From: Acaryochloris marina MBIC11017
GTDB taxonomy: Bacteria; Cyanobacteriota; Cyanobacteriia; Thermosynechococcales; Thermosynechococcaceae
NCBI RefSeq assembly: GCF_000018105.1
Contig: NC_009929.1
Location: 120,001-152,000, forward strand
Direction: 5' to 3'
DNA length: 32,000 bases
The position numbers and the translations under genes are program-made. This document shows positions 3,873-26,680 of the stretch, in pieces. Under the pieces are notes generated by a model. The model had not been told where the DNA came from and ran no database searches. It saw nothing but the letters and a program-made list of their open reading frames with translations. Each line of letters opens with the position of its first letter. The stretch's first letter is position 1.

Positions 3873-5712
<1,840 letters not shown>

Positions 5713-5726
5713 AGGCGGAGTTGCGG

Positions 5727-6041: not shown

Positions 6042-7263
6042 AACGATCCTCCTTTATTTAGTTTTACTCGTAGGGACAACAATTGTTCTTGCCATCCTTT
6101 TTAAAGCAGGGGCCGAACGGCTAGGCATCCCTCCTTTAGTTGGATATTTATTGCTAGGTTTTGTTTTACAACTTCTGGATTTTCGAGGCTTTCTAGCTTC
6201 CGAAGTGGTGTTGGAGGTCTATAGTTTTTTAGCTGAATTAGGGATTATTTCTCTACTGTTCCGTGTGGGATTAGAATGCAATCTCACTGGATTATTGCGT
6301 CAGTTACCTCGAGCTTGCTTGCTCCTCGTCGGTGATGTGATCTGTAGTGGTTCACTAGGTTTTATCACGGCCTATTTCCTTTTGAATTTATCTCTGGTTG
6401 CCAGCCTATTTATTGGCATTGCCTTGGTCGCAACCAGTGTTGGGATTTCAATTAGCGTTTGGCAAGATTCCCAGGCCCTTAATTCCATAAATGGAGAGTT
6501 GTTACTAGATATTGCAGAAATGGATGATATTGCGGCTATTATCCTGATGTCTTTATTGTTCTCCCTTGCGCCTTCCTGGCAGCATGGAACTGAAATCAAG
6601 TTTCTGCCGCTTTTAGAAACCATTATTGGGCCTTTTTGCTTAAAGGTGATAATTTTTAGCACCTTCTGCTTGATCTTTTTTCGCTATATTGAGCAGCCCT
6701 TAACTCAATTTTTTGAGCGCATAGAACCGGCCCCCGATCCGATGCTGATGGTTGCCGGAACAGGCTTTGTTATTGCTGCTATAGCAGGGCTTTTAGGTTT
6801 CTCAGTTGCGGTTGGGGCCTTCTTTGCCGGACTGGCATTTAGCCGAGATCCTCACGCGGTTAGAATCGATGCATCTTTTGGCACACTCTACGAATTTTTT
6901 GTGCCGTTTTTCTTTATCAATATTGGTCTACAAATTCAATTTACAGGCCTAGCAACCACAGTTGGTATCAGCCTAGTCCTGCTCAGTGCTGCCCTGATTG
7001 GCAAACTGATGGGAGTCGGAGGATTACTACTCCTGACTCAAGGTGACCTTTCGAGCGCAACACTACTCGGAATCAGTATGATTCCTCGAGCCGAAATTAC
7101 GATGGTGATCCTGCAACGAGGACGTGACTTGGGCACTTGGGCCGTCTCTGTCCAGATATTTGCGGGTATGACCTTGGTTGCGATCGCAACCTGTATTATC
7201 GCGCCGATGCTGTTATATCCGTTACTTAAGCAATGGCCCCAACTCCAGGAGGTGGAAGCATGA
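6034..7263 (+). CDS. Cation/proton antiporter, CPA2 (NapA/Kef-type membrane domain only, no RCK/KTN domain)
   Basis: 409 aa and almost entirely hydrophobic. Motifs present: LFRVGLE, ATS (aa 133-135), paired aspartates DD (aa 164-165) and IPRAEITMVI. Its ATG overlaps the atpQ stop (ATGAGTGA), and its TGA overlaps the atpR ATG (ATGA). Confidence 0.85.
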   Translation: MSETILLYLVLLVGTTIVLAILFKAGAERLGIPPLVGYLLLGFVLQLLDFRGFLASEVVLEVYSFLAELGIISLLFRVGLECNLTGLLRQLPRACLLLVGDVICSGSLGFITAYFLLNLSLVASLFIGIALVATSVGISISVWQDSQALNSINGELLLDIAEMDDIAAIILMSLLFSLAPSWQHGTEIKFLPLLETIIGPFCLKVIIFSTFCLIFFRYIEQPLTQFFERIEPAPDPMLMVAGTGFVIAAIAGLLGFSVAVGAFFAGLAFSRDPHAVRIDASFGTLYEFFVPFFFINIGLQIQFTGLATTVGISLVLLSAALIGKLMGVGGLLLLTQGDLSSATLLGISMIPRAEITMVILQRGRDLGTWAVSVQIFAGMTLVAIATCIIAPMLLYPLLKQWPQLQEVEA

Positions 7264-7595
7264 ATAGTCATTCCCCTGCCCTATTCACCTCCTTAATTTT
7301 GGGGAGTAGCTTAGGACTCCTTTACTTCGGTGGACTATGGATCACGATTCTCCGATTTAACCGCACCACTCAACCCATCCTGTTGATGTGGAGTAGTTTT
7401 CTACTCCGTCTGGGCACGGTTTTAGGGGTGTTTCACCTTATCCTTCAGAACGGTATGAGCGATCATCTGCTGGCCCCTCTACTGCTGACATTTCTGGGAT
7501 TTCTGGGGGCTCGAAATCTCTTAATTTCCAGCATTATTCCTCTGCCTAAAAAGATCAAGAAGGGCAGAAAAGACGTTGTGAATTATGACTTATAA
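7260..7595 (+). CDS. atpR: AtpR (N-ATPase-specific small membrane subunit)
   Basis: 111 aa with three hydrophobic segments and an AtpR-like GLLYFGGLWITILR motif. ATG 7260 is preceded by AGGAGG (7247-7252). The ORF-track start at 7233 would fall inside the antiporter gene. Confidence 0.7.
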   Translation: MNSHSPALFTSLILGSSLGLLYFGGLWITILRFNRTTQPILLMWSSFLLRLGTVLGVFHLILQNGMSDHLLAPLLLTFLGFLGARNLLISSIIPLPKKIKKGRKDVVNYDL

Positions 7596-7736
7596 GCTCT
7601 AAATCAAAGAATTTTCTCAATACTCTGTATCGCAAAGAAGTTTGGCCAAAAGACTTAAACATAGCTCTTTCAACACAGCATCAGAATTTATCGTTGTTAT
7701 CACTTTTAAAGTTTCTTGGTATGGAGCCCAAATGTA

Positions 7737-8441
7737 ATGCATCTAACACCCGATCAAACTATTTTTTGGCAATGGGGGTTGTTCTCTCTCAATGCGACGC
7801 TGATCTTCACTTGGCTTGTCATGGGGGTGTTGGTGGTTGGCTCATGGTTCGTGACCCGACACCTCTCTGCCTCGACTCAGATCTCCCGGGGACAAAACCT
7901 GTTAGAGGTCATTGTGTTGGGCATTAGAGATCAGATTCAAGAAATCATTGACCAACCCGCAGACCCGTACTTACCGTTTATCGGCACCTTATTTATCTTT
8001 ATTGCCCTATCAAATCTGTTGAGTGTTATCCCCGGTTACCAACCACCGACGGGGTCCTTATCCACCACAACGGCTCTGGCACTTTGTGTCTTTTTCGCAG
8101 TCCCCCTCTATGGCGTTCAGAAGAAGGGTGTGCGGGGTTACTTACAGCAGTACTTGCAGCCTAACCCCATCATGCTGCCATTCAATATCATTGGGGATTT
8201 CTCCAGAATTGTGGCCCTAGCTGTCCGCCTGTTTGGCAATGTCATGAGTGGAACGATGATCGTCGGCATCCTACTGTCGGTAGCTCCCTTGTTTTTCCCA
8301 GTCATGATGCAGGTCTTGGGGCTCTTAACGGGCGTGATTCAAGCCTATATTTTCGCCATTTTAGCCATGGTTTTCATTGCAGCGGCGAGTCAAGTGGATC
8401 AGCACAACTATCAAACAGACAGTGAGGTCTCCCATGGATAA
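7737..8441 (+). CDS. atpB: N-type F-ATPase a subunit
   Basis: Polytopic membrane protein with the essential stator arginine in its usual context (LAVRLFGNVMSG). ATG 7737 is preceded by GGAG (7723-7726); TTG 7716 is an alternative start. Confidence 0.85.
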   Translation: MHLTPDQTIFWQWGLFSLNATLIFTWLVMGVLVVGSWFVTRHLSASTQISRGQNLLEVIVLGIRDQIQEIIDQPADPYLPFIGTLFIFIALSNLLSVIPGYQPPTGSLSTTTALALCVFFAVPLYGVQKKGVRGYLQQYLQPNPIMLPFNIIGDFSRIVALAVRLFGNVMSGTMIVGILLSVAPLFFPVMMQVLGLLTGVIQAYIFAILAMVFIAAASQVDQHNYQTDSEVSHG

Positions 8442-8721
8442 TATTGCCCTTGTGGGCATGGCTTCGATTGTGATCTCTGGACTCACCATTGCCATTGGCT
8501 CCATCGGTCCAGCCCTAGGGGAAGGTCGTGCCTTATCCCAGGCACTAAGCGCCCTGGCGCAACAACCTGATGAAGCCAATACCATCACCAGAGTGCTGTT
8601 TGTGGGGATGGCATTGGTCGAATCAACGGCCATTTACTGTTTTGTGATTACATTGATTCTGATTTTTGCCAATCCATTTTGGACCTATGTGGTGGAGCAG
8701 GCCAGCACCAATGGAGGATAA
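8434..8721 (+). CDS. atpE: N-type F-ATPase c subunit (rotor ring)
   Basis: 95-aa helical hairpin with loop QQPD, helix 1 GPALGEG and helix 2 MALVESTAIY. ATG 8434 overlaps the atpB stop by 8 nt and is preceded by GTGAGG. Confidence 0.9.
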   Translation: MDNIALVGMASIVISGLTIAIGSIGPALGEGRALSQALSALAQQPDEANTITRVLFVGMALVESTAIYCFVITLILIFANPFWTYVVEQASTNGG

Positions 8722-8723
8722 CC

Positions 8724-9515
8724 ATGTTGATTGATCCACTTACTGTGGTGGCCCAAATCATCAATTTCCTGATTCTAGTGGCCTTACTCAGGCGGTTTCT
8801 CTACACCCCGATCACTCAAGTGATGAAAAAGCGAGAACGGCTGATTGCTCAACAGTTACAGGATGCTGCTCATCAGCAAGAAGTCGCTCAGCAAGAAGCT
8901 GAACGGTGGCGTCAGATGCAGCAATCTTTAGAACATCGCCAAGCCTCGTTTTTGACCCAAGCGCAAGACGCAGCAGACGAACATCGACATCAGTTGTTGC
9001 AGCAAATTCGGGACGAAGTGGATAGTACCCAAGCTCAATGGAGAGAGGCCGTCAAGCGTGAGCAGCACGTGTTTCTAAGTGCCCTACAGCAGCGAGCAGG
9101 ACAGCAGCTAGCTGCAACCCTTCGATGTATTCTTCAAGACTTAGCAAGTGCCAATTTAGAGCAACAAATCCTGGAGACTTTTATTACTCGCCTTAGCCAT
9201 TTACCTTTTTCAGAGCAGGGGGTTCTGGAAACATCCTTATCCAATGCAAGGGGAGAGGAACTCGTTATCTCCAGTACATTTCCAATGCCGGAGGATCGCA
9301 AAGCCCAAATTCTTGCGGTCCTCCATCAGTATGCTCCTGCGATGGAATCGAGTGTTTACCAGTTTGTAACCATTCCAGACTTGATTTGTGGGATTGAACT
9401 CAAGATTCCTGGATATAAGCTGGCTTGGACGATCGAGCAATATCTTGAGCAGTTAGAGGTGAAGTTAAATCAGGTATGGGATGGCATGGAAAAATCATGG
9501 GTTGAGCAGGGGTAG
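8724..9515 (+). CDS. atpF: N-type F-ATPase b subunit (long, 263 aa)
   Basis: A single N-terminal TM helix (LTVVAQIINFLILVALL) is followed by a long charged Q/E/R-rich helix and then a C-terminal globular-looking part. ATG 8724 lies 2 nt after the atpE stop and is preceded by GGAGGA. Confidence 0.75.
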   Translation: MLIDPLTVVAQIINFLILVALLRRFLYTPITQVMKKRERLIAQQLQDAAHQQEVAQQEAERWRQMQQSLEHRQASFLTQAQDAADEHRHQLLQQIRDEVDSTQAQWREAVKREQHVFLSALQQRAGQQLAATLRCILQDLASANLEQQILETFITRLSHLPFSEQGVLETSLSNARGEELVISSTFPMPEDRKAQILAVLHQYAPAMESSVYQFVTIPDLICGIELKIPGYKLAWTIEQYLEQLEVKLNQVWDGMEKSWVEQG

Positions 9516-9518
9516 ACC

Positions 9519-11060
9519 ATGGAGGCTCCCAAACTCGATATTTTGAAACCCGTACTCCAACACATCTTTGCGGCCTTTGATCAGGTGGAAGGTGAGTATC
9601 CATTCGAGTTGCAGAGTCAGGAAATTGGCATTGTGACTTCTTTAGGTCATGGTATTGCCCGAGCGACTGGCCTGTTGCAGGTGCAATCGGAGGAGTTAGT
9701 CAAATTTCCCGGCGATCGGATGGGGCTAGCCTTCAACTTAGATCCAGATGAGGTGGGTTTGATTTTGTTGGATGATGGACATTCCCTGAAGGCAGGGTGT
9801 GAGGTCCAGCGCACAGGCCGGGTTTTGGATGTCCCCGTAGGAGAGGGTTTACTGGGTCGAGTCGTGGATGCAACCGGTCGTCCGTTGGATCAACGAGGAT
9901 TAGTGACTGCGCAAGAACGACGCCCCGTTGAACGGGAGGCTCCTGCCATCATGGACCGGGCTCCTGTAACCGTGCCCCTTCAGACAGGCATTAAGGCCAT
10001 TGATGCTCTTATTCCTATTGGTCGGGGACAGCGGGAACTGATTGTTGGTGATCGGCAAACGGGAAAAACTGCGATTGCCGTCGATACTATCCTCAACCAA
10101 AAAGATCAGGATGTGATTTGTGTGTATTGCGCCATTGGTCAGCGCAGTTCTGCCGTGGCCAAGCTAATTGCTGAGCTTCGCAATCGTGGGGCGATGGACT
10201 ACTGCATTGTCGTGGTAGCGGAGGGGGAAGCCTCACCCGGCCTGCAATATATCACCCCCTATGCTGCGACCACGATGGCAGAGTACTTTATGGAACAAGG
10301 GCAAGATGTGTTGATTGTTTATGACGATCTGATTCAACATGCCCGAGCCTATCGTGAGCTATCGCTTCTATTGCGCCGCCCGCCGGGACGAGAAGCCTTT
10401 CCAGGAGATATTTTTTATATTCATGCTCGGCTGCTGGAGCGGGCGACGTGCCTGCGGCCTGAGTTAGGGGGAGGCTCTCTAACGGCGTTGCCCATTGTCG
10501 AGACGGAAGCCCAAAATCTATCGGCCTATATCCCCACGAACTTAGTCTCAATTACAGATGGACAAATCTATCTCACCCCTGATTTGTTTCAAAAGGGAAT
10601 ATTCCCTGCCGTTGATGTGGGCAAATCGGTTTCCCGAGTCGGAGGCAAAGCCCAGCTTCCTGCTTACCGAGATGTTGCGGGCGATTTACGACTGTCCTAC
10701 ACGCAGTTTGAAGAATTGGAATCTTTTGCTCGGTTTGGAACCCGTTTAGAAGAATCCACTCGGCAATCTTTAGAGCGAGGTCGTCGGGTGCGTGAAGTGC
10801 TGCAACAACCTCAATTTCAGCCTTTACCCGTTGCAGAGCAAATTGCTGTAATGCTAGCGGTGACTCAGGGACAGTTTGATCTCGTGCCCATTGAGCAAGT
10901 GTCCCAAGCCCAACAGCTTATAGGAGAAGCGATACGACGGGAGCTACCGAATATTTGCGATCGCATCCAGAATGCAGGGCAGTTAAGTGAAACGGATCGG
11001 GAGACGTTGCTGAACTGGATCGCCAACCACATATTAAAGGACTCAGACAATGAGTTGTAA
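9519..11060 (+). CDS. atpA: N-type F-ATPase alpha subunit
   Basis: 513 aa with Walker [16 protein letters not shown] and [12 protein letters not shown]. The ATG lies 3 nt after the atpF stop. Confidence 0.93.
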
Positions 11061-11154
11061 TGACTAAATCTAAAGGCCTGCTCTATGCCCTGAAGCCCAT
11101 CCATTGATGATGTCTGCAATAACCAGTCAACATTCATACCCGGCCATTAACATC

Positions 11155-12033
11155 ATGCAAACCCTAGAAACCCTTAAGCGAAAAATTGCCAGCACTCAGG
11201 AGTTGCAGACCGTTGCTAAAACGATGAAAGCTCTAGCCGCCGCCAATATCCGTCAGTATGAACAGGCTGCCAATGCCCTTCAGCACTACCGCCAGACCTT
11301 GGCGATGGCGATACAAATTCTCCGAATAAATTATCCGGATACGTTAACTCACCTGAGACCCCGTGCGCACCCTCGTTTGGGAATAGTGATTTTCGGTTCG
11401 GATCAGGGGATGTGTGGTCGCTTCAATGAGCAGTTGTCAGAGATGGTGATTCAGCACCTAGAGCAGCACTCTTCTCAGGGTGGGCAACCCCTTCTGTTAG
11501 GGATGGGAGCCCGAATTTGCGATAGCATCATTGATCAAGGTTACGCCATTGAGCGATATCTTTCGGTTCCAGCCTCAGTTGACGGCATCACATCTAAGGC
11601 CCAAACGATCGTTGTCCAGCTTGAACAATGGCGTAACCAATGTCAGGTAGACCAAATTTGGGTGTTCCATAATCAACCCATCCGTGGTCATACCAGTACC
11701 CCCCACCGACAACAGCTCTTTCCCCTTGAATCTGACCGTGATCGCTCCTCCTCCTGGTCGACTCGCTGTCGTCCAATGGTCTTTCTGAGTCGAGAGAGAT
11801 TGTTCTCAGCCATATTTCGGCAGCATTTTTTTGTTGCCCTATACCAAGCCTGCGCTGAGTCCCTAGCCAGTGAAAATGCCAGTCGCTTGACCTCAATGCA
11901 GTTAGCGCAAACCAATATTGCTGAACATTTGATGGAGCTACAAGCTGCTTTTCAACAGCAACGCCAAACAAAAATCACGGAAGAGTTGCTGGATATCGTG
12001 TCAGGCTTTGAGGCCCTTAACCAATCCCACTAG
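11155..12033 (+). CDS. atpG: N-type F-ATPase gamma subunit
   Basis: The N-terminal helix MQTLETLKRKIASTQELQTVAKTMKALAAA and the C-terminal helix SENASRLTSMQ...ITEELLDIVSGFEAL are typical of gamma. The upstream in-frame starts TTG 11104 and ATG 11107 cannot be excluded. Confidence 0.82.
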   Translation: MQTLETLKRKIASTQELQTVAKTMKALAAANIRQYEQAANALQHYRQTLAMAIQILRINYPDTLTHLRPRAHPRLGIVIFGSDQGMCGRFNEQLSEMVIQHLEQHSSQGGQPLLLGMGARICDSIIDQGYAIERYLSVPASVDGITSKAQTIVVQLEQWRNQCQVDQIWVFHNQPIRGHTSTPHRQQLFPLESDRDRSSSWSTRCRPMVFLSRERLFSAIFRQHFFVALYQACAESLASENASRLTSMQLAQTNIAEHLMELQAAFQQQRQTKITEELLDIVSGFEALNQSH

Positions 12034-12599
12034 TGGCTCAAGGCAGGGGCCGCGAGCGGTTCACAAAGGATATCTGCACAAGTTGCCACCGTTTGCCACT
12101 CTTGCACCACTTGAGTGGGGACTTCAACTTTAATGAACTTCATCCCTTTTGTCGGAATCAACAGGTAAAGAGCAGCGTCTAACTTAGGCACAACTGGTTG
12201 GAGATTATACTGGGCAACATTGGGGCCAGGGAGGAGTTCAGTATACAAAGACTCTGGGAGATTCTTCACTTTTACAGTTTTTCCTTGAGACGTGACCAGG
12301 GTAAGAGGCAGAGAATGATCGATATCTACAAAGCCAGGGCAGCCAGCTAGCATCAGGTCAATCTTAGGGGGGCTAGCAATGCCCACATGCTTGGATGCGA
12401 CGACTAACCAATCATTCCCTTGTTGATCGAGTAGATGTTGTCGAGATTGATAGAGCATCTGACCTTGTGCTTCTCTTGTCATGCTCACGTCTGCGATCGC
12501 AGATGAACTGATCCCATTGCCCATATTGGTCAAGAGCAGCAGCACTAAGGTACTGATCATTAACAACAACAATAGATTTCTACGAATCCAAACTCTCAT
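12030..12599 (-). CDS. Hypothetical exported or membrane-anchored protein
   Basis: The N-terminus MRVWIRRNLLLLLMISTLVLLLL has a signal/anchor character, and the remainder is soluble and beta-rich. I recognised no catalytic motif. The ORF-track start at 12614 is TTG; ATG 12599 is preferred. Confidence 0.55.
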   Translation of the reverse strand: MRVWIRRNLLLLLMISTLVLLLLTNMGNGISSSAIADVSMTREAQGQMLYQSRQHLLDQQGNDWLVVASKHVGIASPPKIDLMLAGCPGFVDIDHSLPLTLVTSQGKTVKVKNLPESLYTELLPGPNVAQYNLQPVVPKLDAALYLLIPTKGMKFIKVEVPTQVVQEWQTVATCADILCEPLAAPALSH

Positions 12600-12658
12600 T
12601 TGTCTATTCCTCAATTTATATGGATGTAGAGGGTTATGAATGAGGTTGATAGTGGACC

Positions 12659-12933: not shown

Positions 12934-13380
12934 TTAACTCATAGCAGCATGGCTGCGCTCATAAGTCACTCGAAAGCTCGGGTGGACTTTTCCTTGAATA
13001 TGATTCCAGTATTTTGAGGGATCTACCTTAAGGTGAATCTCTGATGTCGCCCGACCGAGCATACTTTGCTGGCGGTGCTTAATAATCCGATGATGATCCA
13101 TCATTAACCACCGGGCTTCTTCAGCGACCGACACCCAATCATCTCCAACTGTCTCAGTTTGGTTTACCCTTTGTGATTGAGGCATATCAGTCGGTGATTC
13201 ACCAGCATGATACGCCACACCACGGTAGGTGAGATCAGCACTGATTGGGGGGACAGGGGGCTCCTGCAGCTCTCGGCGTCGGTAACTTAATCCACGATAT
13301 TTCCCTACGCCAGCACTGTGGCCATAGTTAACCACTGGAGGACGATAGTCGTAATCAATGCCTCTATAGGTCAGTTTCAT
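12934..13380 (-). CDS. DUF4278-like cyanobacterial protein
   Basis: The N-terminus MKLTYRGIDYDY and a second LTYRGVAY repeat match my recollection of the DUF4278 signature. Function unknown. Confidence 0.65.
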   Translation of the reverse strand: MKLTYRGIDYDYRPPVVNYGHSAGVGKYRGLSYRRRELQEPPVPPISADLTYRGVAYHAGESPTDMPQSQRVNQTETVGDDWVSVAEEARWLMMDHHRIIKHRQQSMLGRATSEIHLKVDPSKYWNHIQGKVHPSFRVTYERSHAAMS

Positions 13381-13439: not shown

Positions 13440-13489
13440 TGAGGAGCTTGTGAAGAATGGTTGACACCTCAATCTTCACAAGCTCCTCA
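13440..13489. promoter_or_regulatory. Perfect 17-bp inverted repeat with a 16-nt loop, in a divergent intergenic region
   Basis: TGAGGAGCTTGTGAAGA (13440-13456) pairs perfectly with TCTTCACAAGCTCCTCA (13473-13489). The loop ATGGTTGACACCTCAA contains TTGACA. Confidence 0.5.
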
Positions 13490-13640
13490 AATTCGGAGAG
13501 CTGGATCAATCGGATGGATAAAGGGGTTGGGCAAATACCCTTCAATAAGTGTTGTTCTCCGAACGGTGGCTAGTCCGATTTACCGTTACCCTGAAGAATA
13601 AGGACTGAATCCGTCACCTCAGCTCCCTAGGAGGATTACA

Positions 13641-16019
13641 GTGAGAATCCTAGTTGTGGAAGATGATGAGTTAGTTGCTGAAGCGCTGCAAACTTTACTC
13701 GTCGATTTGAATTATGCCGTTGAGCTGGCAACAGATGGCCAGACCGCGGCAGAATTGGTCGAAGCATTCGAATACGATCTCATCCTTTCAGATGTAATGT
13801 TGCCTAGACTGGATGGGGTTGGTCTTTGCCAACAGTTGCGATCCCAAGGCTATCAAATTCCGATCTTGCTACTTACGGGCAAGGATAGCAGCCATGATCG
13901 CGCGATTGGACTTGACGCTGGGGCAGATGACTACGTCGTTAAACCGTTTGATCCAGAAGAATTAGCGGCTCGGGTAAGGGCCTTACTTCGCAGAGGGGAA
14001 GCCATCAAACCCCCAATCTTAAAATGGGAAAACTTACAGCTAGACCCCAGAGCATGTGAGGTCAAATATCAAGATGTTCTCCTCAAGCTCACTCCCAAAG
14101 AATATGCCCTCGTAGAGTTAATGATGCGGAATACCCGCCGTGTATTTAGTTGCGGAATGATTTTAGAACATATATGGACATATGAGGATACACCTGGCGA
14201 AGAAGCAGTCAGAACTCATATCAAGGGCCTCCGCCAAAAATTAAAAGCATCGGGAGCACCCACGGACTTGATTGAAACCGTTTATGGCATTGGGTATCGC
14301 CTGAAACCACTAGCAGAACTAAAAAAAAATCAAGGGACATCTGTTCAAACACCAGAAGTCAAAATTAAGCAGCAAACCATGAGTGCGATTGCTGATATTT
14401 GGATTAAGTTTCAGCCCCGTATCCAGGAACAGATCAATCAATTAGATAAGGCTGTAGTAGCAGTGACTGAGGGTTGCTTGAATAACGAATTAAGGCAATC
14501 GGCTCAACAAGAAGCCCATACCTTAGCCGGTGGATTAGGGACCTTTGGTTTATCGAAAGGGTCCCAGTTAGCGCGTGAGATTGAACATCTATTGCGATCT
14601 CATTCCTCCCTCGACGCCAAGCAATCCCTGCAGTTTCAACAGGATGTCGAGGCGCTGAGGCGGGAAATAAATTATGCTAGCCAACCTGCCACTCAAGTGA
14701 CCTCAGACCGTCAAGATGAATTGGGGCAATGGGTTGTTCTAGTGATAGATGCTGATACCCCTTCCCGAGATGCTCTAGCGACGGAGGCTCGTCAGCATCA
14801 GATTCGATATCTAACGGCAGAGAGCATTGACCTGGCACGAGACCTCATTCAGGAACAGTCCCCGCATCTCATCCTCTTTGATCCTGCAGGCCAGTCTCCA
14901 ATCCAAAGCCTAACCTTTTTAGAGGCTCTACTGTATCTTCCACTACCCATTCCAGTCTTGATCTGGACAGCTGATGAGGAACGGTATCAAGAGATGGCTA
15001 AAGCCTACTCTAGCGGCCAACGACCAATCTCAAAATCTTTACCCCTTCAACAAGTGTGGGATCGGGTTGAACACACCCTCCAAAGTAAGGGGGGCAAAGA
15101 AGCCCGGATCATGATTGTGGATGATGACCCACAAATCTTGGAAACCGTAGCGGCCCTATGCAAACCCTGGGGGCTTGAGGTCATTGGACTTGACGAGCCG
15201 ACTCAGTTTTGGGAAACGCTGACCAATTCTCCACCGGATCTGCTGTTACTCGATGTAGAGATGCCCGAAATTGGCGGGATAGATCTGTGCAGGGTTGTTC
15301 GCAATGATATTCAGTGGGAGCAGTTGCCCATCATTTTTCTAACTGCCCACACGGAGGCTGATGTGGTCAACCAAGTTTATGCTTCAGGGGCAGATGATTT
15401 CATCAGCAAGCCCATTGTCGGACCAGAATTGGTGGTTCGTATTCTCAACCGTTTAGAACGGACTCGATTACAGCGCCGTCTTTCCACCATTGATCCTTTG
15501 GCCCGAGTGCTCAGCCGCCACGAATCGACCCATGCCCTGGAATTGCTGTTGAGTGAGGTGGCGCATCAACCTCGCAGCATGTGTCTTGTTATTCTGGAAA
15601 TAGAGCGTCTTCAGCAGATTAATGATTGCTTTGGTTACGCGGTAGGCGACAGTATCCTGAGACAGTTTGCTCAAGCGTTGTTAGGGTTGGCATCTACTGA
15701 AGATGTGATTGCCCGTAGAGGTGGTAACCAATTCTTAGTGGGGTTGTTAGGAGCCACCAAAGCTGAGGGAGGTCAAAGAGTTCAAGACTTCTTGAATGTT
15801 GTCCATAAGACCCCCTATTCAATACCTGATGGCACCAACATTCAGATTACCTGTAGTGCAAGTGTGGTTCATTGTCCTGAGGACAGTCAAGATTTTCAAG
15901 ATCTGTGCATTTTGGCAGAAGAGACGTTGACTGAAGCCAGAGCATTAGGGTGGGGGCAAGTTCGCATAGCCAATCAGTCCCTATCCCTCCCAGCCAAACT
16001 GCATGCCGAGAAAGGCTAG
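13641..16019 (+). CDS. Multidomain response regulator: REC - OmpR-type winged helix - Hpt - REC-like - REC - degenerate GGDEF
   Basis: GTG start preceded by TAGGAGGA. Domains as read:
- REC1: D51 in LILSDVMLP, K101.
- wHTH: LTPKEYALVELM...YGIGYRLK.
- Hpt-like: H293 in QEAHTLAGGLGTFG.
- REC2: aa ~365-470.
- REC3: DDD 494-496, D538, T568, K590.
- GGDEF fold with GGNQF (aa 694-698) and STED in place of the RxxD I-site. Confidence 0.88.
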   Translation: MRILVVEDDELVAEALQTLLVDLNYAVELATDGQTAAELVEAFEYDLILSDVMLPRLDGVGLCQQLRSQGYQIPILLLTGKDSSHDRAIGLDAGADDYVVKPFDPEELAARVRALLRRGEAIKPPILKWENLQLDPRACEVKYQDVLLKLTPKEYALVELMMRNTRRVFSCGMILEHIWTYEDTPGEEAVRTHIKGLRQKLKASGAPTDLIETVYGIGYRLKPLAELKKNQGTSVQTPEVKIKQQTMSAIADIWIKFQPRIQEQINQLDKAVVAVTEGCLNNELRQSAQQEAHTLAGGLGTFGLSKGSQLAREIEHLLRSHSSLDAKQSLQFQQDVEALRREINYASQPATQVTSDRQDELGQWVVLVIDADTPSRDALATEARQHQIRYLTAESIDLARDLIQEQSPHLILFDPAGQSPIQSLTFLEALLYLPLPIPVLIWTADEERYQEMAKAYSSGQRPISKSLPLQQVWDRVEHTLQSKGGKEARIMIVDDDPQILETVAALCKPWGLEVIGLDEPTQFWETLTNSPPDLLLLDVEMPEIGGIDLCRVVRNDIQWEQLPIIFLTAHTEADVVNQVYASGADDFISKPIVGPELVVRILNRLERTRLQRRLSTIDPLARVLSRHESTHALELLLSEVAHQPRSMCLVILEIERLQQINDCFGYAVGDSILRQFAQALLGLASTEDVIARRGGNQFLVGLLGATKAEGGQRVQDFLNVVHKTPYSIPDGTNIQITCSASVVHCPEDSQDFQDLCILAEETLTEARALGWGQVRIANQSLSLPAKLHAEKG

Positions 16020-16191
16020 CTAGAATAGAGATAAAGGAGTCTGCTAGGTGTCTGGCCGTGACAATGGGTTCCGCGTAATTTGACAAACAAAATGATCCAC
16101 ACTTGTTGAACGTCACAGACTGCTCTGATCCCACTGAAAATTTCAGAGACTCTAGTTGCCCGTTCTTGGATGAGTAACTATTGCGCTAGAA

Positions 16192-17103
16192 ATGTTTAGG
16201 CAAAATCTACGAGTCGATACCTTCGAACGCCAGCTTGCTGCAATAGTTGGGGTAAGTTTACTCATGGCAGCTTATTCCTTCGGAAGTCCGGTCAATTTAA
16301 CCACTCCAAGGGGGGAAAACCTTTCTGTAGAGAAGATTACTGTATCGCTGGATGAGCGTTCTTCTAGTATTCATGATGCTCAGACCCTCAAGCTAGCCTC
16401 AAATGAGCCCCCTTCAACTTGTTACCAATTCCCGACTCAATTTCAAGGACAAACCATTTACGGGGTGCAGCTTCCCCGCCATCAAAAAGCGATCGCCCTC
16501 ACGTTTGATGATGGTCCCTGGCCTCATAACACATCAACTGTATTGACTATTCTCCAGCAACACCAAGTCAAAGCCACTTTTTTTGTATTGGGTCGTAATG
16601 TAGCTCAATATCCCCACTTAATCCAACAGATTGCGACGGCAGGACATGCGATTGGCAATCACTCTTGGAGCCATGGCTATCAAGATCACAGCCTTGAAAT
16701 GGCACAGGCTGAGATTCAGCAAACGACTGATATTGTTAAACAGCACACTGGACATAAGACGGCTCTATTTCGTCCCCCTGGAGGGTTTCTGGACAATGGT
16801 TTAGTAGCCCAAGCGAGTTCTCAAAAGATGGTTACTGTCTTGTGGACGATTGACGATACCTATGAAGGGTCTGTGGATTTAGCCGTGCAAAACGTCATTC
16901 AAAATGCAACACCTGGAGGCATCGTACTGATGCATGATGGCGGGGGTAATCGCGAATTAATGATTAAGGCTCTGCCTTTAGTGATCTCCGAACTAAAACA
17001 GCAAGGCTACCAACTCGTTACAATCCCACAACTGTTAAATTTGGCAGACACTCAGGTCAGGTCGGAGGATGCCATTGATTGCATGTCGTCCGACCTTACC
17101 TGA
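16192..17103 (+). CDS. Polysaccharide deacetylase (NodB homology, CE4), N-terminal membrane anchor or signal
   Basis: CE4 motifs appear in order: TFDDGP, GNHSWSH, LFRPPGG and IVLMHDGG. The N-terminal segment LAAIVGVSLLMAAYSF is hydrophobic. Confidence 0.85.
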   Translation: MFRQNLRVDTFERQLAAIVGVSLLMAAYSFGSPVNLTTPRGENLSVEKITVSLDERSSSIHDAQTLKLASNEPPSTCYQFPTQFQGQTIYGVQLPRHQKAIALTFDDGPWPHNTSTVLTILQQHQVKATFFVLGRNVAQYPHLIQQIATAGHAIGNHSWSHGYQDHSLEMAQAEIQQTTDIVKQHTGHKTALFRPPGGFLDNGLVAQASSQKMVTVLWTIDDTYEGSVDLAVQNVIQNATPGGIVLMHDGGGNRELMIKALPLVISELKQQGYQLVTIPQLLNLADTQVRSEDAIDCMSSDLT

Positions 17104-17181: not shown

Positions 17182-17700
17182 TCAAATGGAGTCTTCTGAA
17201 ACAACCGTTTCTCCTTGAATCACCAAGACAGAACAAGGGGCATGGTGGACGATATGGTTGCTGACACTCCCAAGAAAAAGTTCCTTGAGTCCCGTGCGAC
17301 CATGGCGTCCCACGACAATCAGATCAGCGTGCCAGTCTTTAGCCCGTTTACAAATCTGAGGCCCTGGATTACCTAATTCAGTCTCAAAGGTTGTCTTTAT
17401 ACCTTGATGCTCTGCTTTTAGGCAAAATTCTTGCAACCATAGTTTGGATTCCGCAATTTGTGCGTCCCAGGCTTGCCTTGCCAACTCGTAATCCACAGCA
17501 GATGGAGAAAGGTAACCTGATTCTAAAGGAGTCCCTACCGGTGAGATCGTTGAATTACCCAAAGGATTAATTTCTGCCTCTACACTATGAAACAGCTTTA
17601 CCTCAGCTGCATGTAATTTTGCTTCTACCAATGCCTGTTCATAAACTGCAGGTTGAAGGAAGGAAGTATCTAGTGCAACCAAAATGCGATGATATCTCAT
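17182..17700 (-). CDS. Universal stress protein (single UspA domain)
   Basis: ILVALDTS...DLIVVGRHGRTGLKELFLGSVSNHIVHHAPCSVLVI is a USP ATP-binding-type motif. ATG 17700 is preceded on the minus strand by GGAGGAATCCTG. I consider the longer ORF-track start at 17817 unlikely. Confidence 0.8.
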   Translation of the reverse strand: MRYHRILVALDTSFLQPAVYEQALVEAKLHAAEVKLFHSVEAEINPLGNSTISPVGTPLESGYLSPSAVDYELARQAWDAQIAESKLWLQEFCLKAEHQGIKTTFETELGNPGPQICKRAKDWHADLIVVGRHGRTGLKELFLGSVSNHIVHHAPCSVLVIQGETVVSEDSI

Positions 17701-17730
17701 CAGGATTCCTCCATAGAAATAACAACCGTC

Positions 17731-17757
17731 TTGACAGTTCCCATCCCCCCCTATATC
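17731..17757 (+). promoter_or_regulatory. Sigma70-like promoter candidate with a C7 tract in the spacer
   Basis: TTGACA (17731-17736) is followed by a 15-nt spacer that ends in CCCCCCC (17745-17751), then TATATC (17752-17757). It points toward the ferredoxin-nitroreductase gene. This is a sequence pattern only. Confidence 0.25.
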
Positions 17758-18078
17758 TCCATGGTAGAGCTTTATTTTCACAAGCAGCGATAAAAGATTT
17801 TGCCGCAGAGCTGGCAAGTAATTGGAAATATGGCTTTATTCTTGTCTCCAGCGGAGGGGTTTCGTCAACGCTCATCGATTAGGCGAGGGGGGACGGGGAT
17901 AGACAATTGGCACCCTCACAAATTGCTCATTTAGTATGCCTAGGCTCAAAGATAGAGATGGCAATATCAGTCAAAGTTAGTCCTATAGCAGGGGGGGACT
18001 TCACCTGTGATGTGAGGACATCCTGGTGTCAGAAGCGAAACATCAGCCAGCATGTGCAAAGGCTAAGGAGTCAGCATT

Positions 18079-18951
18079 ATGGCGACTATCCAGATTGATG
18101 CCGAACGCTGTCAGAAATGTGGAAAATGTGTGCAGATTTGTCCAACGATCTTTGCACAACATACCAAAGGGGCAATTCCTCACTTGCTAGACACTACTCG
18201 ATGTATCGAATGTGGGCATTGCGTCGCCATTTGTCCCAGCGAGGCGATTTCTCATTCGAGTTTTCCGTCTGGCACCATCGCTCCAATCCAGCCAGAACAA
18301 CTGCCCGATACGGCACAATTCATGGAACTATTGCGATCGCGCCGTTCCATTCGTGAATTCAGCAAGAGGCAAGTTGATCGGGCACTGATTGAACAAATTA
18401 TTGAGGCAGCCTGCTTTGCGCCCAGTTCCCACAATGTCCAAAGTACAGAGTACATCGTCGTCCAAGACCCCGCCATGCGCCAGCAAATTGTTGAACTGAC
18501 CATCGCTCAATACCGACAGTGGCGCAAACTACTCGGCAATCCAATCGCACGAACCCTGACACGGCTGGTGAGAGGCTCAACCGGGCAAGCCACGTTAGAC
18601 GAACTACGCGAAGCCTTTACAAACCTAATCAACCAGTACGGTCAGGGAAGCGACCCCATTCTGCGAGAAGCTCCTACCCTGCTGATCTTCCATGGCGATC
18701 GTCACATCGGTTTCGCTGGGGTTAACGCCAACCTTGCCTTGCAAAATGCCAGTTTAGTGTGTGAAACCTTGAAGTTGGGTGCTTTTTATACTGGCTATGT
18801 CGTTGCTGGCAGTAATTTTAATCCTCGGCTGGCCAGACTACTGAAACTCCCACCAAATCACAAAATCTATGCTGGTTTAGCAATCGGTCATCCTAGATTT
18901 CACTATAAAAATTGGATTGAGCGCAAACCTACTCAGATTCAATGGTTTTAA
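18079..18951 (+). CDS. 2x[4Fe-4S] ferredoxin domain fused to a nitroreductase-family flavoprotein
   Basis: Two CxxCxxCxxxCP motifs (CQKCGKCVQICP and CIECGHCVAICP) are followed by nitroreductase-type LLRSRRSIREF...APSSHNVQ. The ATG is preceded by AAGGAG. Confidence 0.85.
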   Translation: MATIQIDAERCQKCGKCVQICPTIFAQHTKGAIPHLLDTTRCIECGHCVAICPSEAISHSSFPSGTIAPIQPEQLPDTAQFMELLRSRRSIREFSKRQVDRALIEQIIEAACFAPSSHNVQSTEYIVVQDPAMRQQIVELTIAQYRQWRKLLGNPIARTLTRLVRGSTGQATLDELREAFTNLINQYGQGSDPILREAPTLLIFHGDRHIGFAGVNANLALQNASLVCETLKLGAFYTGYVVAGSNFNPRLARLLKLPPNHKIYAGLAIGHPRFHYKNWIERKPTQIQWF

Positions 18952-19212: not shown

Positions 19213-20286
19213 ATGTTGAAAAAAATTCTGGTGGCTCTAGATCATTCAGCCTTTAGCCAGAAAACCTTTATGCAATCTCTGGTTTTAGCCAAGGCAACCC
19301 ATGCAAAGCTGATGCTGTTTCATGTCATCTCATCGACTGAGGAAGGATATCCTCCTTATCCCTTGATGCCAGGTGTGTTGGAGGAGTTTGACCTGTCATA
19401 TGCTGGAGTCGCAAACTCTTATCTCAATGACTTAGATGTCTTCAAAGCCAGCAGTTTTGAGTTACTCAGATCTCGAGCCAATCAGGCTAAAGAAAAGGGT
19501 CTGACCGTTTTCTACCAACAATCCATGGGAGATCCAGGTCGAGAGATTTGCGAAATCTCTCGACAATGGAAAGCGGATACGATCATCATCGGACGCCGCA
19601 GCCGAAATCTTCTTAGCAAAGTTCTATTGGGCAGTGTTAGCAACTACGTCACACACCATGCTCCTTGTTCAGTGTTGATTGTCCACCACCAGGATGTGCC
19701 GGAGTTCATCCCCAAACAATCTATAAATACTTTAGAGGCGAATAAACTGTCTTTCGAAGAATGGCGCGGAAAGTTGTCTTACCGCAGTATCTTAGTGGCC
19801 TTGGATGGGGGTGACATTAACCAGCCTATCGTTAATAGAGCAATAAATCTTGCCAAGAGAATGTCCACAGCTCGGTTGATGTTGCTGCATGTCTTGCCCC
19901 ATGATGTGGCAAAAGTTCCCATTCCTAGTCCCCCTCCAACCGCAATTGCTCAGCAACGGCTGGATAACTATCCTAGTTTGCGTGATGACATCCTCTACAG
20001 CCAACAACGACAATGGAATGCCTATGATAGTGATTGCTTACCCCAATTGCGATCCTATACTGCGATCGCAAGGGAAGCAGGTATTCCAACTGAATTTATT
20101 CAACAACCTGGATCTCCCGGTGAAGTCATTTGTGAATTTGCTAAGAACAGATCATCAGACTTAATTCTAGTGGGTAATCGAGGTCGTTCAGGACTTAGCG
20201 AAATGCTTCTTGGAAGTGTGGGGAAATATGTTGCGAACCATGCGTCCTGTTCCGTGATGGTCGTTCGTCCTCAGCAACCGGCATGA
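19213..20286 (+). CDS. Tandem universal stress protein (two UspA domains)
   Basis: Two repeats of the pattern ILVALD...(I/L)(I/L)(I/V)G(R/N)R(S/G)R...LLGSV(S/G)xYVxxHAxCSV(L/M)(I/V)V. The ATG is preceded by AGGAGG. Confidence 0.85.
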   Translation: MLKKILVALDHSAFSQKTFMQSLVLAKATHAKLMLFHVISSTEEGYPPYPLMPGVLEEFDLSYAGVANSYLNDLDVFKASSFELLRSRANQAKEKGLTVFYQQSMGDPGREICEISRQWKADTIIIGRRSRNLLSKVLLGSVSNYVTHHAPCSVLIVHHQDVPEFIPKQSINTLEANKLSFEEWRGKLSYRSILVALDGGDINQPIVNRAINLAKRMSTARLMLLHVLPHDVAKVPIPSPPPTAIAQQRLDNYPSLRDDILYSQQRQWNAYDSDCLPQLRSYTAIAREAGIPTEFIQQPGSPGEVICEFAKNRSSDLILVGNRGRSGLSEMLLGSVGKYVANHASCSVMVVRPQQPA

Positions 20287-20333: not shown

Positions 20334-20867
20334 TTGAGTGAAGGGAGTCAAACTATTGTGGATGGCAAACCTCATCCCAGTGGAGATCAGCGTTTTAGGG
20401 TGCTAGAGGCAACGATGAAACGTCATCAATATCAGCCCAATTCACTGATTGAAGTTTTGCATAAGGCTCAGGAATTGTTCGGATATTTAGAACGCGACAT
20501 CCTATTACACATTGCCCACAGTTTAAAGTTACCCCCTAGTCAAGTCTATGGTGTAGCCACCTTCTATCACTTTTTCTCGCTAACACCTTCTGGACGCCAT
20601 ACCTGTGTGGTTTGTATGGGAACGGCATGTTTTGTCAAAGGGGCTGCATCACTCCTGTCAACAGTGGAACAGATCGCTCACATTCAAGCTGGGGAAACTA
20701 CTCAAGATGGAGGCTTGTCACTCAGCACTGCTCGTTGCCTGGGGGCCTGTGGGAGTGCTCCTGCTGTGGTGTTGGATGGTCAAGTGGTTGGCTATCAAAC
20801 CTCAGAAAACTTAGGTCAGCAAGTCACGCAAATGATGGACCATCCTCAATCTAAGGTCGCAACATAA
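20334..20867 (+). CDS. hoxE: Bidirectional hydrogenase diaphorase subunit HoxE (NuoE-like, 2Fe-2S)
   Basis: HPSGDQRF...KRHQYQPNSLIEVLHKAQE matches cyanobacterial HoxE. The cluster cysteines are CVVCMGTAC and CLGACGSAP. The start is non-ATG: TTG 20334, or GTG 20358 after GAAGGGAG. Confidence 0.88.
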   Translation: MSEGSQTIVDGKPHPSGDQRFRVLEATMKRHQYQPNSLIEVLHKAQELFGYLERDILLHIAHSLKLPPSQVYGVATFYHFFSLTPSGRHTCVVCMGTACFVKGAASLLSTVEQIAHIQAGETTQDGGLSLSTARCLGACGSAPAVVLDGQVVGYQTSENLGQQVTQMMDHPQSKVAT

Positions 20868-22523
20868 ATGGATTTACAAGAGCTACAAACCCTTGCTGAG
20901 CGAGAACAAGAGATTCTCGATGCGCCTTGCATCCGCTGCTGTACGGTGGGGGGCTGTTTATCTGCTAATGCCTTGGCAGTAAAAGAACAAATTGAAGTTG
21001 AGATCGCAACTCAAGACCTCAACCCTCCTATGCACGTTCGGGGGGTGGGCTGCATGGGACTGTGTAGCCGAGGTCCCCTAGTCCGACTAGACCCCGCAGG
21101 CATTCTCTACGATCAAGTAACCCCCGAAGACGCCCCTGAACTGGTCCACGCCTGCCATAAAACCCTCCAACCCCATCTGCCTAAAGCCTTATCAAATAGT
21201 TCTCCGCTCCAACCCTCCTCTTATCAGCCCCGACATCACCCTTTCTTCACCCTGCAACACCCCATCGTCCTCGAAAACAGTGGTCATATTGACCCTAAGG
21301 AAATCAAGGATTATATGGCCCAAAAAGGCTATCTAGCCCTTACCCAAGCCCTTTACGATATGACCCCCAGTGATGTAATTGATCAGATTACTCAAAGTGG
21401 TCTTCGAGGGCGAGGCGGCGGCGGATACCCCACAGGCTTGAAATGGTCAACAGTCGCCAAAATGCCCCCTGGACAAAAGTATGTGATTTGCAATGGTGAT
21501 GAAGGTGACCCAGGTGCCTTTATGGATCGCAGTGTCTTAGAAAGTGATCCCCATCGGGTGTTAGAGGGGATGGCAATTGCAGCCTACGCTGTCGGTGCCA
21601 ACCAAGGCTACATCTATATTCGAGGTGAGTATCCTCTCGCCATCAATCACCTCGAAACGGCCCTGCGTCAAGCTCGCAAGCAAGGTTTACTCGGTAGTCA
21701 AATTTTTGAGTCTCCCTTTGACTTTCGGATCGATATCCGTATTGGGGCGGGGGCCTTTGTTTGTGGCGAGGAAACAGCCCTAATGGCCTCCATCGAAGGG
21801 AAGCGTGGATTACCTCACCCTCGACCACCTTACCCTGCTGAATCTGGACTCTGGGGTTGTCCAACATTGATTAATAATGTGGAAACTTTTGCCAATATCG
21901 CTCCGATTATTCGCAATGGGGCTGAATGGTTTGTTGGGATTGGTACAGACAAGAGCAAAGGAACCAAAGTGTTTTCCTTAGCGGGCAAGATCCAAAATAC
22001 CGGATTGATTGAAGTCCCCATGGGTACCTCCCTGCGCCAAATTGTTGAACAGATGGGCGGGGGTGTCCTTGATGGATCGGCTAAAGCAGTGCAAACGGGT
22101 GGCCCCTCAGGGGGATGTATTCCTGCCCATGCCTTTGATACACCCGTAGATTATGAATCTCTGACCCGTTTGGGGTCCATTATGGGGTCCGGTGGCATGA
22201 TTGTCATGGATCAGGCCACCAATATGGTGGATGTCGCTCGTTTCTTTATGGAATTTTGCATGGAAGAGTCCTGTGGTAAGTGTGTTCCCTGTAGAGCAGG
22301 AACGGTTCAGCTTTACCAGTTACTCACAAAAATCTGTGATGGAAAAGCAAGAAAAGAGGATTTAGAGTCTCTAAACCAACTTTGCGAAATGGTCAAGGAT
22401 ACTAGCCTATGTGGCCTTGGAAAATCTGCCCCCAATCCTATTCTTAGTACCCTACGTTTTTTCAAAGATGAGTACTTAACGCTGATGCATAATGAGGGTT
22501 CTGGCGATTATCACCCCCCATAA
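20868..22523 (+). CDS. hoxF: Bidirectional hydrogenase diaphorase subunit HoxF (NuoF-like; FMN/NAD(P)H, Fe-S)
   Basis: N-terminal thioredoxin-like 2Fe-2S domain, [23 protein letters not shown] and the 4Fe-4S motif [10 protein letters not shown]. The ATG immediately follows the hoxE TAA. Confidence 0.93.
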
Positions 22524-22651
22524 GATAGCGTCAGACTTGGGTTTAAGACTGTTGAGTTTTGTTAGTTCAGAAACGATTTAACTTAACATTACAGAACTCA
22601 AAAAATGTCCTACTTTTTCTATAAACTTAGTCCGAATAATTCTGAAGATGA

Positions 22652-22660
22652 GCATGCAAA
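22652..22660. repeat. Left copy of the 9-bp target-site duplication GCATGCAAA
   Basis: It is identical to 23730-23738 and directly abuts the left inverted repeat of the IS. Confidence 0.85.
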
Positions 22661-23729: not shown

Positions 23730-23738
23730 GCATGCAAA
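23730..23738. repeat. Right copy of the 9-bp target-site duplication GCATGCAAA
   Basis: It is identical to 22652-22660 and directly abuts the right inverted repeat. It contains the present ATG (23732) of the downstream gene. Confidence 0.85.
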
Positions 23739-25181: not shown

Positions 25182-25221
25182 GGATTGGATACACAGCGGA
25201 AGGAAAAGGCTGGTATGGGCT

Positions 25222-26607: not shown

Positions 26608-26680
26608 CAAAGCCTCAAACCAATGGTCAAGGGCCTCTGCTCAGTTCCTATCAATCGTGGACGTATCAAGGAGTACCAAG

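Follow-up and report, generated by a model that had tools for sequence, protein, structure and literature searches.

A predicted RcaC-type phosphorelay activator with a degenerate GGDEF domain in Acaryochloris marina, and a candidate promoter box of its family

What could be the function of a single polypeptide that combines a DNA-binding response regulator, a phosphotransfer domain, two further receivers and a GGDEF domain whose catalytic motif is degenerate? This question is raised by a gene (referred to as the regulator gene) located in a 32,000-nucleotide stretch of the Acaryochloris marina MBIC11017 sequence (NC_009929.1, positions 120,001 to 152,000; this whole stretch is called the window, and coordinates refer to it unless a locus number is given). 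The original prediction, made for the same DNA, had described the product as a transcription factor carrying its own internal phosphorelay. In the analysis reported here it appears fairly probable that the regulator is a member of a cyanobacteria-wide group of complex response regulators that would act, under the control of a phosphorelay, as activators of a stress and dark-fermentation regulon through a conserved promoter box, and that its cyclase function was lost in the Acaryochloris lineage. What is new is a testable candidate cis-element and a predicted regulon, both derived from sequence comparisons, for an RcaC-type regulator fused to an apparently inactivated PleD/WspR-type module.

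The regulator is a REC-wHTH-HPt-REC-REC-GGDEF protein with intact phospho-sites (REC, receiver; wHTH, winged helix; the three receivers are numbered from the amino end). Its GTG start codon is preceded, six bases ahead, by AGGAGG (13629-13634), and the amino-terminal sequence MRILVVEDDE corresponds to the consensus of the homologues. All residues listed in the original prediction (D51, K101, H293, D414, T443, K465, D494-D496, D538, T568 and K590) were found at the positions assigned to them, and so were the three motifs of the GGDEF domain, LEIERL (652-657), STED (685-688) and GGNQF (694-698). In an alignment of 198 homologues, D51, T79 and K101 of REC1 were each conserved in all sequences, whereas H293, which is encoded by nucleotides 14517-14519 and lies in the motif EAHTLAG, and D538 of REC3 were each conserved in 196. 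The divergent receiver is REC2, in which D370-x-D372 stands in place of DD and K465, next to the retained D414 and T443, is followed by S and not by P; across the family D414 was present in 179 and K465 in 185 of the 198 sequences.

An AlphaFold2 model of the regulator, built on 32 homologues and having a mean predicted local distance difference test (pLDDT) score of 75 (about 88 in REC1), contained three (beta-alpha)5 receivers, a disordered linker (218-248), the H293-bearing bundle with helices 238-276, 282-301, 305-319 and 326-346, and a confident GGDEF fold. A stalk helix (596-616) joins REC3 to the GGDEF domain. Foldseek related the C-terminal half to PleD, DgcR (template modelling score, TM, 0.77) and WspR, the N-terminus to OmpR/PhoB regulators, and the GGDEF domain to that of DosC (TM 0.92). 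At the level of sequence, amino acids 2-223 matched the PDB structures of MtrA, RegX3 and RpaA, and the best-scoring models for the REC1-wHTH part were PhoB, MtrA and RppA.

The original prediction had considered this architecture unusual; it turned out to be an RcaC-type layout, the GGDEF version of which is spread across cyanobacteria. The closest homologue, in Acaryochloris sp. CCMEE 5410, was 96% identical, and more than 120 full-length homologues with an identical Pfam set (47-52% identity) were found in Microcoleus, Scytonema, Brasilonema, Chroococcidiopsis, Leptolyngbya and other cyanobacteria. When one genome per species was scanned, 581 relatives were found, and the loci of the best 80 were examined. 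In about one third of these 80 loci the match was to residues 1-615 alone. This cassette either ended at approximately 625 amino acids or was extended by PAS-GAF-PAS-HisKA-HATPase-REC-REC (proteins of 1,300-1,760 amino acids in Nostocales), by PAS-HisKA-HATPase or by GAF. A census of 249 sequences counted 117 with a canonical GGDEF domain, about 65 with a degenerate one, 37 consisting of the cassette only and 30 fused to a kinase. Because identity over the cassette is 55-60% between the cassette-only, kinase-fused and GGDEF classes, the C-terminal output appears to have been swapped repeatedly. The current annotation of the family is generic ("response regulator" or "GGDEF-like protein"). All of the best 80 loci were cyanobacterial except one, on a 107-kb contig of a metagenome-assembled genome (MAG) labelled "Rhizobium sp. 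Q54" (L014, CALRKB020000012.1); it encodes a typical cyanobacterial family member, 48% identical to the regulator, and the contig is probably mis-binned cyanobacterial DNA.

The candidate binding site was found by searching for direct repeats with a 10-12-bp period in upstream regions of the window, of Acaryochloris thomasi and of a Thermosynechococcaceae MAG. The box has the 16-nt core CCTCACAAGTTCCTCA and the extended consensus tTCCTCAcaagTTCCTCAaat, that is, an 18-bp TTCCTCA-N4-TTCCTCA element made up of two 7-bp repeats with a 4-bp spacer. Allowing up to three mismatches, four matches were detected in the window against 0.48 expected, and none of 100 shuffled sequences reached four. A scan with a position weight matrix (PWM) identified six sites scoring above the best site of 10 shuffles (9.2). 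All six (Table 1) are intergenic and oriented to the next gene, with intergenic DNA amounting to 11.8% of the window. The inverted repeat at 13440-13459 / 13470-13489 (20-nt arms, 95% complementary), from which the original prediction had suggested starting the search for targets, was confirmed and proved to be a good starting point, as it consists of two copies of the family-wide box. Since the arms are boxes oriented to the DUF4278 gene and to the regulator gene, respectively, the repeat can be understood as a pair of boxes in inverted orientation, one for each of the divergent genes. Among the Acaryochloris loci the arms are conserved and the loop is not; the regulator-facing box is conserved in loci L085, L084 and L081. 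The box preceding the operon for an alternative F-type ATPase (N-ATPase gene order) occupies the same position in A. thomasi (L081), and exact boxes are located upstream of ppsA in L081 and L082. The best-formed combination of box and -10 element in the window belongs to the DUF4278 gene, with TAGATT.

Three other explanations of the inverted repeat were rejected. An intrinsic terminator would require a T-run, which is absent, and no terminator was called; for a CRP-type TGTGA-N6-TCACA site the spacing is wrong; and although the repeat folds strongly as an RNA hairpin (-35 kcal/mol, z -5.8), the fold is explained by the inverted orientation of two copies of a DNA box, single copies of which are found elsewhere. 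A sigma-70 consensus -35/-10 pair was found neither upstream of the regulator gene nor upstream of the ATPase operon.

Table 1. Domains of the regulator, candidate boxes and other features of the window
Feature	Position	Strand	Remarks
Regulator gene	13641-16019	+	792 amino acids, REC1-wHTH-HPt-REC2-REC3-degenerate GGDEF; frame intact
REC1 (aa 1-119)	13641-13997	+	canonical: D8, D9, D51, T79, K101; Pfam Response_reg 3-113, strong
OmpR/PhoB-type winged helix (aa 127-222)	14019-14306	+	Pfam Trans_reg_C 148-221, 75.6 bits
HPt four-helix bundle (aa 238-346)	14352-14678	+	Pfam Hpt 254-341, E 2e-13 when scanned alone
REC2 (aa 365-481)	14733-15083	+	divergent; Pfam ~369-475, 23 bits alone, below the Response_reg cut-off of 30.2 bits; (beta-alpha)5 fold in AlphaFold2 model
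REC3 (aa 488-606)	15102-15458	+	canonical: D494, D495, D496, D538, T568, K590; Pfam ~490-601, 91.6 bits
GGDEF fold (aa 616-776)	15486-15968	+	Pfam GGDEF 616-769, 80 bits; active site and I-site predicted dead
Candidate box CTTCACAAGCTCCTCA	13474-13489	+	faces regulator gene; right arm of inverted repeat; PWM 30.3
Candidate box	13440-13455	-	faces divergent DUF4278 gene (12934-13380, -); left arm of inverted repeat; PWM 21.7; TAGATT 11 nt downstream
Candidate box	3794-3809	+	70 bp upstream of first N-ATPase operon gene (3879); PWM 19.1
Candidate box, weaker	1072-1087	+	115 bp upstream of ppsA (phosphoenolpyruvate (PEP) synthase, 1202-3715); PWM 15.8
Candidate box	17914-17929	+	upstream of nitroreductase-ferredoxin gene (18079-18951), in region shared with divergent Usp gene; PWM 12.5; TAGGCT at +11
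Candidate box	24865-24880	+	intergenic, upstream of hoxU (25222); PWM 12.5; TAGCCT at +11
Alternative F-type ATPase operon, N-ATPase order	3879-12033	+	beta, epsilon, AtpQ-like, AtpR-like, a, c, b, alpha, gamma
DUF3122 gene	12030-12614	-	with DUF4278, between ATPase operon and regulator in all Acaryochloris loci examined
Usp gene	17182-17817
Usp gene	19213-20286
Bidirectional-hydrogenase cluster	20334-31950
hoxE	20334-20867
hoxF	20868-22523
hoxU	25222-25941
hoxY	26044-26607
hoxH	29405-30889
hypF	31150-31950	-

In 85 loci anchored on family genes (1.04 Mb in total) 74 box matches with up to two mismatches were found, compared with 0-2 in shuffled sequences. With the window included the number of matches was 78; of these 71 were intergenic, and 64 had a gene start in the same orientation 16-280 bp downstream. 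At 44 of the 71 sites a TAnnnT hexamer followed the box at a distance of exactly 11 nt, as would be expected if the box replaced the -35 element of an activator-dependent promoter. Boxes were present in loci of all three C-terminal classes, and the recognition helix of the winged-helix domain, PGEEAVRTHIKGLRQKLK in the regulator, was near-invariant within the family, taking the form PGEEAVRT(H/Q)IKGLRQKLK across the same three classes. The genes downstream of the boxes in the family loci were usp (universal stress protein; 14 sites), ppsA (11), hsp20 (7), the family gene itself (7), a gene for a small Cys-rich protein (5), DUF4278 (3) and N-ATPase (2). Exact 16-mer matches in metagenome contigs numbered 124 (62% intergenic), and their downstream genes included ppsA (7), usp, hsp20, genes for a HoxW-like protease (3), HoxF-like (2) and PFOR-like (2) proteins, nitroreductase, hemerythrin and others. 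A literature search found no mention of the box sequence.

These observations can be combined into a mechanism, which we propose for the family as a whole. A PAS/GAF histidine kinase would pass phosphate to a small single-domain receiver playing the role of RcaF, and this receiver would phosphorylate H293 of the HPt domain, from which the phosphoryl group would move to D51 of REC1, to D538 of REC3 or to both. Phosphorylated REC1 would then activate the OmpR/PhoB-type winged helix, which is predicted to bind TTCCTCA-N4-TTCCTCA as a head-to-tail dimer. With the box in the place of the -35 element and 11 nt upstream of the -10 element, the regulator would activate transcription in the manner of PhoB. 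In most family members phosphorylation of REC3 would also activate the diguanylate cyclase at the C-terminus, in the way known from PleD, WspR and DgcR, so that in the canonical members a single signal would control both transcription and cyclic di-GMP (c-di-GMP). In the Acaryochloris lineage the active site and the I-site were lost, and the domain was most likely retained as a dimerisation or regulatory module. The predicted targets in the window are ppsA, the N-ATPase operon, the DUF4278 gene, the regulator gene itself, the nitroreductase gene and hoxU; the wider predicted regulon comprises usp, hsp20, nifJ-like and hox genes.

Several points weigh against this proposal. The box was discovered in regions flanking the gene, which makes the argument partly circular, a circularity relieved by the occurrence of the box at other loci, by the metagenome scan and by the spacing to the -10 element. 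The box has been assigned to the regulator on the basis of co-location, of its occurrence ahead of the regulator gene and of its Pho-box-like geometry, and it might be bound by some other regulator; CTGGAT, the -10-like element at +11 of the regulator-facing box, is weak. Neither a kinase nor a single-domain receiver is encoded within the 32-kb window. The likeness to RcaC, with the same domain order over the first ~615 amino acids, is one of architecture only. In a literature search no binding, phosphotransfer or enzymatic results were found for any family member, and disruption of Tll1049 of Thermosynechococcus vulcanus (CheY-CheY-CheY-GGDEF), a possible but unverified orthologue, led to no aggregation phenotype.

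It is conceivable, although rather doubtful, that the box is the site of another transcription factor, such as a global regulator of stress or anaerobiosis, and that the RcaC-like gene is merely one of the targets. The poor -10 element downstream of the regulator-facing box would fit this explanation, and so would the many metagenome contigs in which the box occurs without a family gene, but these contigs are mostly too short to include the regulator. Moreover, 7-bp direct repeats with a 4-bp spacer in the place of the -35 element are the signature of an OmpR/PhoB-type activator, and the family gene is the only regulator of this type that recurs in these loci. Taking also into account that the boxes are concentrated ~10-fold or more near family genes of all three C-terminal classes, and that recognition helix and box are conserved to the same degree, assignment of the box to the regulator family is the interpretation that we prefer.

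How would the regulator be phosphorylated? According to the original prediction the relay is closed: REC1, phosphorylated by an unlinked kinase or by acetyl phosphate, would donate its phosphate to H293 and through it to REC3, all on the same transcription factor, with the dead GGDEF domain serving as a ligand sensor. A His-Asp relay via H293 is plausible, all three phospho-sites being intact and almost invariant; the closed form of the relay is, in our opinion, unlikely. It would be compatible with the lack of a kinase and of a single receiver in the window, a lack shared by the other loci of the A. marina group, and the sensor part would be compatible with retention of the guanine-contacting residues N661 and D670. 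However, in 21 of 50 GGDEF-class loci a histidine kinase gene lies directly downstream on the same strand at a distance of 3-560 bp. These kinases are of the PAS/GAF, sometimes of the ETR1_N type, some of them hybrid, and the kinase gene is followed by that of a single-domain receiver of 125-186 amino acids. The nearest outgroups with a degenerate GGDEF domain, A. thomasi and one Thermosynechococcaceae MAG, show the gene order regulator, PAS-GAF-PAS kinase (846 amino acids), receiver (125 amino acids), DUF1830, ppsA and 3-5 usp genes. In the window (region 16020-17103) and in the A. marina group the place of the A. thomasi genes for the kinase (L081 12354-14897) and the receiver (L081 14902-15282) is occupied by a polysaccharide deacetylase gene, and in the window ppsA lies upstream of the ATPase operon, whereas in A. 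thomasi and in the MAG it lies downstream of the regulator. The fusion of a kinase to the cassette in Nostocales and the operon arrangement elsewhere suggest that the cassette cooperates with a separate kinase and a shuttle of the RcaF kind, and that the phosphate enters at the HPt domain from outside, as described for the Rca phosphorelay. In addition, a flow from REC1 to the HPt domain would drain phosphate from the very domain that is meant to activate DNA binding, and the metal, phosphate and I-site residues that a GGDEF-type ligand sensor would need for classical binding of GTP or c-di-GMP are lost.

The extent of this loss became apparent from the alignment of amino acids 485-776 with PleD 150-446 (E 1e-30). 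The metal-binding residue D327 of PleD is changed to E653, D329 to E655, E370 to N696 and E371 to Q697, and both phosphate-binding residues are changed as well (K442 to R767 and R446 to W771). In the I-site R359 is replaced by S685 and D362 is retained as D688; the guanine contacts N335 (N661) and D344 (D670) are likewise retained. Mutational work on PleD and WspR has established that each change in the acidic residues of GG(D/E)EF, in the metal-binding Asp, in R446 or in the I-site Arg abolishes cyclase activity or I-site binding. By comparison with these enzymes, the regulator should have neither cyclase activity nor I-site binding of the classical type, and the dead GGDEF domain of the original prediction was borne out, nearly every catalytic determinant being absent. 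Ratios of nonsynonymous to synonymous substitution rates (dN/dS) of the domain were 0.075 relative to a 90%-identical A. marina orthologue and 0.085 relative to a 74%-identical orthologue, those of the other domains ranged from 0.036 to 0.18, and the value for the whole gene was 0.10. A domain that is dead and yet under purifying selection still does something, which makes a non-catalytic role reasonable. The non-catalytic function suggested for it in the original prediction (sensor or interaction module) gained support, whereas sensing of c-di-GMP by the classical route became unlikely because the I-site is degenerate as well. Its most likely present function is that of a dimerisation or regulatory module, which may bind nucleotides.

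Continued participation of the domain in c-di-GMP signalling seems quite improbable, be it as a cyclase of an atypical kind or as a receptor whose I-site would make the transcription factor responsive to c-di-GMP. The fold is intact, the GG of the motif and D688 of RxxD are retained, the sequence is under purifying selection, and degenerate GGDEF receptors are a known class. On the other hand, GG(D/E)EF has lost its two acidic residues, the metal-binding Asp is replaced by Glu and R446 by Trp, and the Arg of the I-site is Ser in the regulator and S, A, T or C throughout its clade.

Among the GGDEF-class members of the 198-sequence alignment, 114 carry GGEEF or GGDEF, and in most of these canonical members LDLDxF and an RxED I-site are present too. 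About 45 members show degeneration of one kind or another. In a neighbour-joining tree of the cassette the regulator fell into a clade of 12-13 sequences from Acaryochloris and Thermosynechococcaceae-like MAGs, all of them degenerate. As the next sister groups have canonical GGDEF domains, the loss of the catalytic site was secondary. Judged by this tree the dead GGDEF domain is a derived state of the Acaryochloris clade and not a family-wide trait. A different degenerate signature, GGTEF together with HTQD at the I-site, was observed in a Nostocales subclade of the GGDEF class (L031, L042, L045, L049, L054 and L059); it is a separate, independent loss of the cyclase motif. In L031 the GGTEF/HTQD member is linked to a PAS hybrid kinase with an ETR1_N (ethylene-receptor-like) domain.

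That the regulator gene might be a decaying remnant, orphaned when kinase and receiver disappeared from the A. marina-group locus and the enzymatic site was lost, is contradicted by the intact 792-codon frame, the dN/dS values (0.10 overall and 0.04-0.18 per domain), the intact phospho-sites and the conserved upstream boxes, and hardly deserves credence.

RcaC is the closest known parallel in domain order. It is described as having three CheY-like receivers and a winged helix (PMC4390838). RcaC forms the end of the RcaE-RcaF-RcaC phosphorelay of type III chromatic acclimation in Fremyella diplosiphon. It reportedly also contains an HPt domain, with the phospho-sites numbered D51, H316 and D576 (work of Li and Kehoe, 2005). 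Just as RcaC cooperates with RcaE and RcaF, relatives of the regulator are accompanied by a sensor kinase and a small single-domain receiver, but the family-linked kinases are of the PAS/GAF or ETR1_N types. RcaC lacks a GGDEF domain and controls phycobilisome genes, whereas the targets predicted for the regulator are ppsA, usp, hox and N-ATPase genes; the window contains no phycobilisome genes. RcaC acts through the L-box, a direct repeat with an 11-bp period, whereas the box of the regulator family is the different sequence TTCCTCA-N4-TTCCTCA. A scan for the L-box (TTGTTA-N5-TTGTTA) gave 30 matches against 24.8 expected, that is, no enrichment. No protein named RcaC occurred among the best 120 matches of the homology searches, and a literature search for RcaC together with GGDEF gave nothing relevant.

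One further locus was noticed in Hydrococcus rivularis NIES-593 (L070 1793-7890), where a cassette-only member of 629 amino acids is encoded directly downstream of two rod-linker genes (cpeC/D), cpeS, cpeT and a small cpeR-like open reading frame (ORF). Its recognition helix is the variant ENAVRTHIKELRHKLK, and no box was found in the locus. The adjacent phycobilisome genes make this protein a suggestive candidate for a true RcaC-type regulator of chromatic acclimation.

The Pho box consists of two 7-bp direct repeats with a 4-bp spacer and replaces the -35 element. The candidate box has the same layout and lies in the same place, separated from the -10 element downstream of it by a short, constant distance; box sequence and regulon differ from those of PhoB, the regulator has six domains instead of two, and its binding to the box is a prediction. 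The C-terminal part of the regulator resembles PleD, WspR and DgcR: the REC3-stalk-GGDEF segment aligns with PleD and superposes on DgcR, and REC2-REC3-GGDEF mimics the REC-REC-GGDEF layout of PleD. However, the receiver next to the GGDEF domain is an adaptor in PleD and the canonical receiver in the regulator, the GG(D/E)EF and RxxD motifs typical of these cyclases are retained in most family members and lost in the regulator, and the GGDEF module of the regulator is appended to a complete transcription factor and HPt domain. RfpB of far-red light photoacclimation (FaRLiP; REC-wHTH-REC) is likewise a cyanobacterial OmpR-type protein that carries an additional receiver at its C-terminus and takes its input from a phytochrome kinase via the single-domain receiver RfpC, but as described it lacks an HPt domain, a third receiver and a GGDEF domain. 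Other candidates were rejected as relatives: Synechocystis Slr1588, considered as a possible orthologue, is a REC-EAL protein; Anabaena CdgS/CdgK and Alr3599 are ordinary REC-GGDEF or other cyclases that show no sign of family membership; and for Leptolyngbya Dgc2 the literature search found no mention of a receiver, HPt or DNA-binding domain, nor any link to the family.

The window forms a coherent island, in which the gene order is hypE-like, ppsA, the ATPase operon, DUF3122, DUF4278, regulator, polysaccharide deacetylase, usp, nitroreductase, tandem usp, hoxE/F/U/Y/H interspersed with CBS and CBS-CP12 genes, and hypF. Between the AtpQ-like and AtpR-like genes of the ATPase operon a gene for a Na+/H+ exchanger (6034-7263) is inserted, and the same N-ATPase arrangement with the exchanger, supported by ATPase_gene1 and AtpR Pfam matches, was found in three other Acaryochloris loci. 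The hox cluster is interrupted by a gene for a solute-binding protein, a CBS-domain gene (26657-27226) and a CBS-CP12 fusion gene (28726-29367), and includes three ORFs with no Pfam match (22720-23286, 23271-23717 and 27273-28700). In relatives, tandem arrays of 3-5 usp genes follow ppsA near the regulator gene (L081 18980-21670 and L082 13708-15293). Of 83 loci, 19 have a usp gene no more than 6 kb away from the family gene, and the family gene, ppsA and usp arrays also occur together in Scytonema, Rivularia, Richelia, Mastigocoleus and others.

More tentatively, the family may represent the long-missing dedicated activator of a cyanobacterial regulon for darkness, anoxia and stress. This regulon would comprise ppsA, nifJ/PFOR, hox, hsp20 and usp arrays, with the N-ATPase added in Acaryochloris, and the activator would act via the Pho-box-like element TTCCTCA-N4-TTCCTCA. 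In most cyanobacteria, one phosphorelay would then drive this regulon and c-di-GMP from one polypeptide, and in Acaryochloris the cyclase half would have turned into a non-catalytic regulatory module, for which the retained guanine contacts raise the possibility of sensing GTP or (p)ppGpp.

Should the preferred interpretation hold, a large, so far anonymous family present in hundreds of cyanobacterial species would be given a function, together with a binding site and a regulon. The predicted regulon is of applied and ecological interest, including as it does the bidirectional hydrogenase, PFOR, PEP synthase, universal stress proteins, a small heat-shock protein and a Na+-type ATPase, and the box offers a handle for predicting the regulon in any cyanobacterial genome. 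The family would also be a natural case of a single phosphorelay protein coupling transcription to the synthesis of a second messenger, and because its second output has repeatedly been exchanged (cyclase, kinase or nothing) or inactivated, it would make the modularity of outputs in two-component signalling testable.

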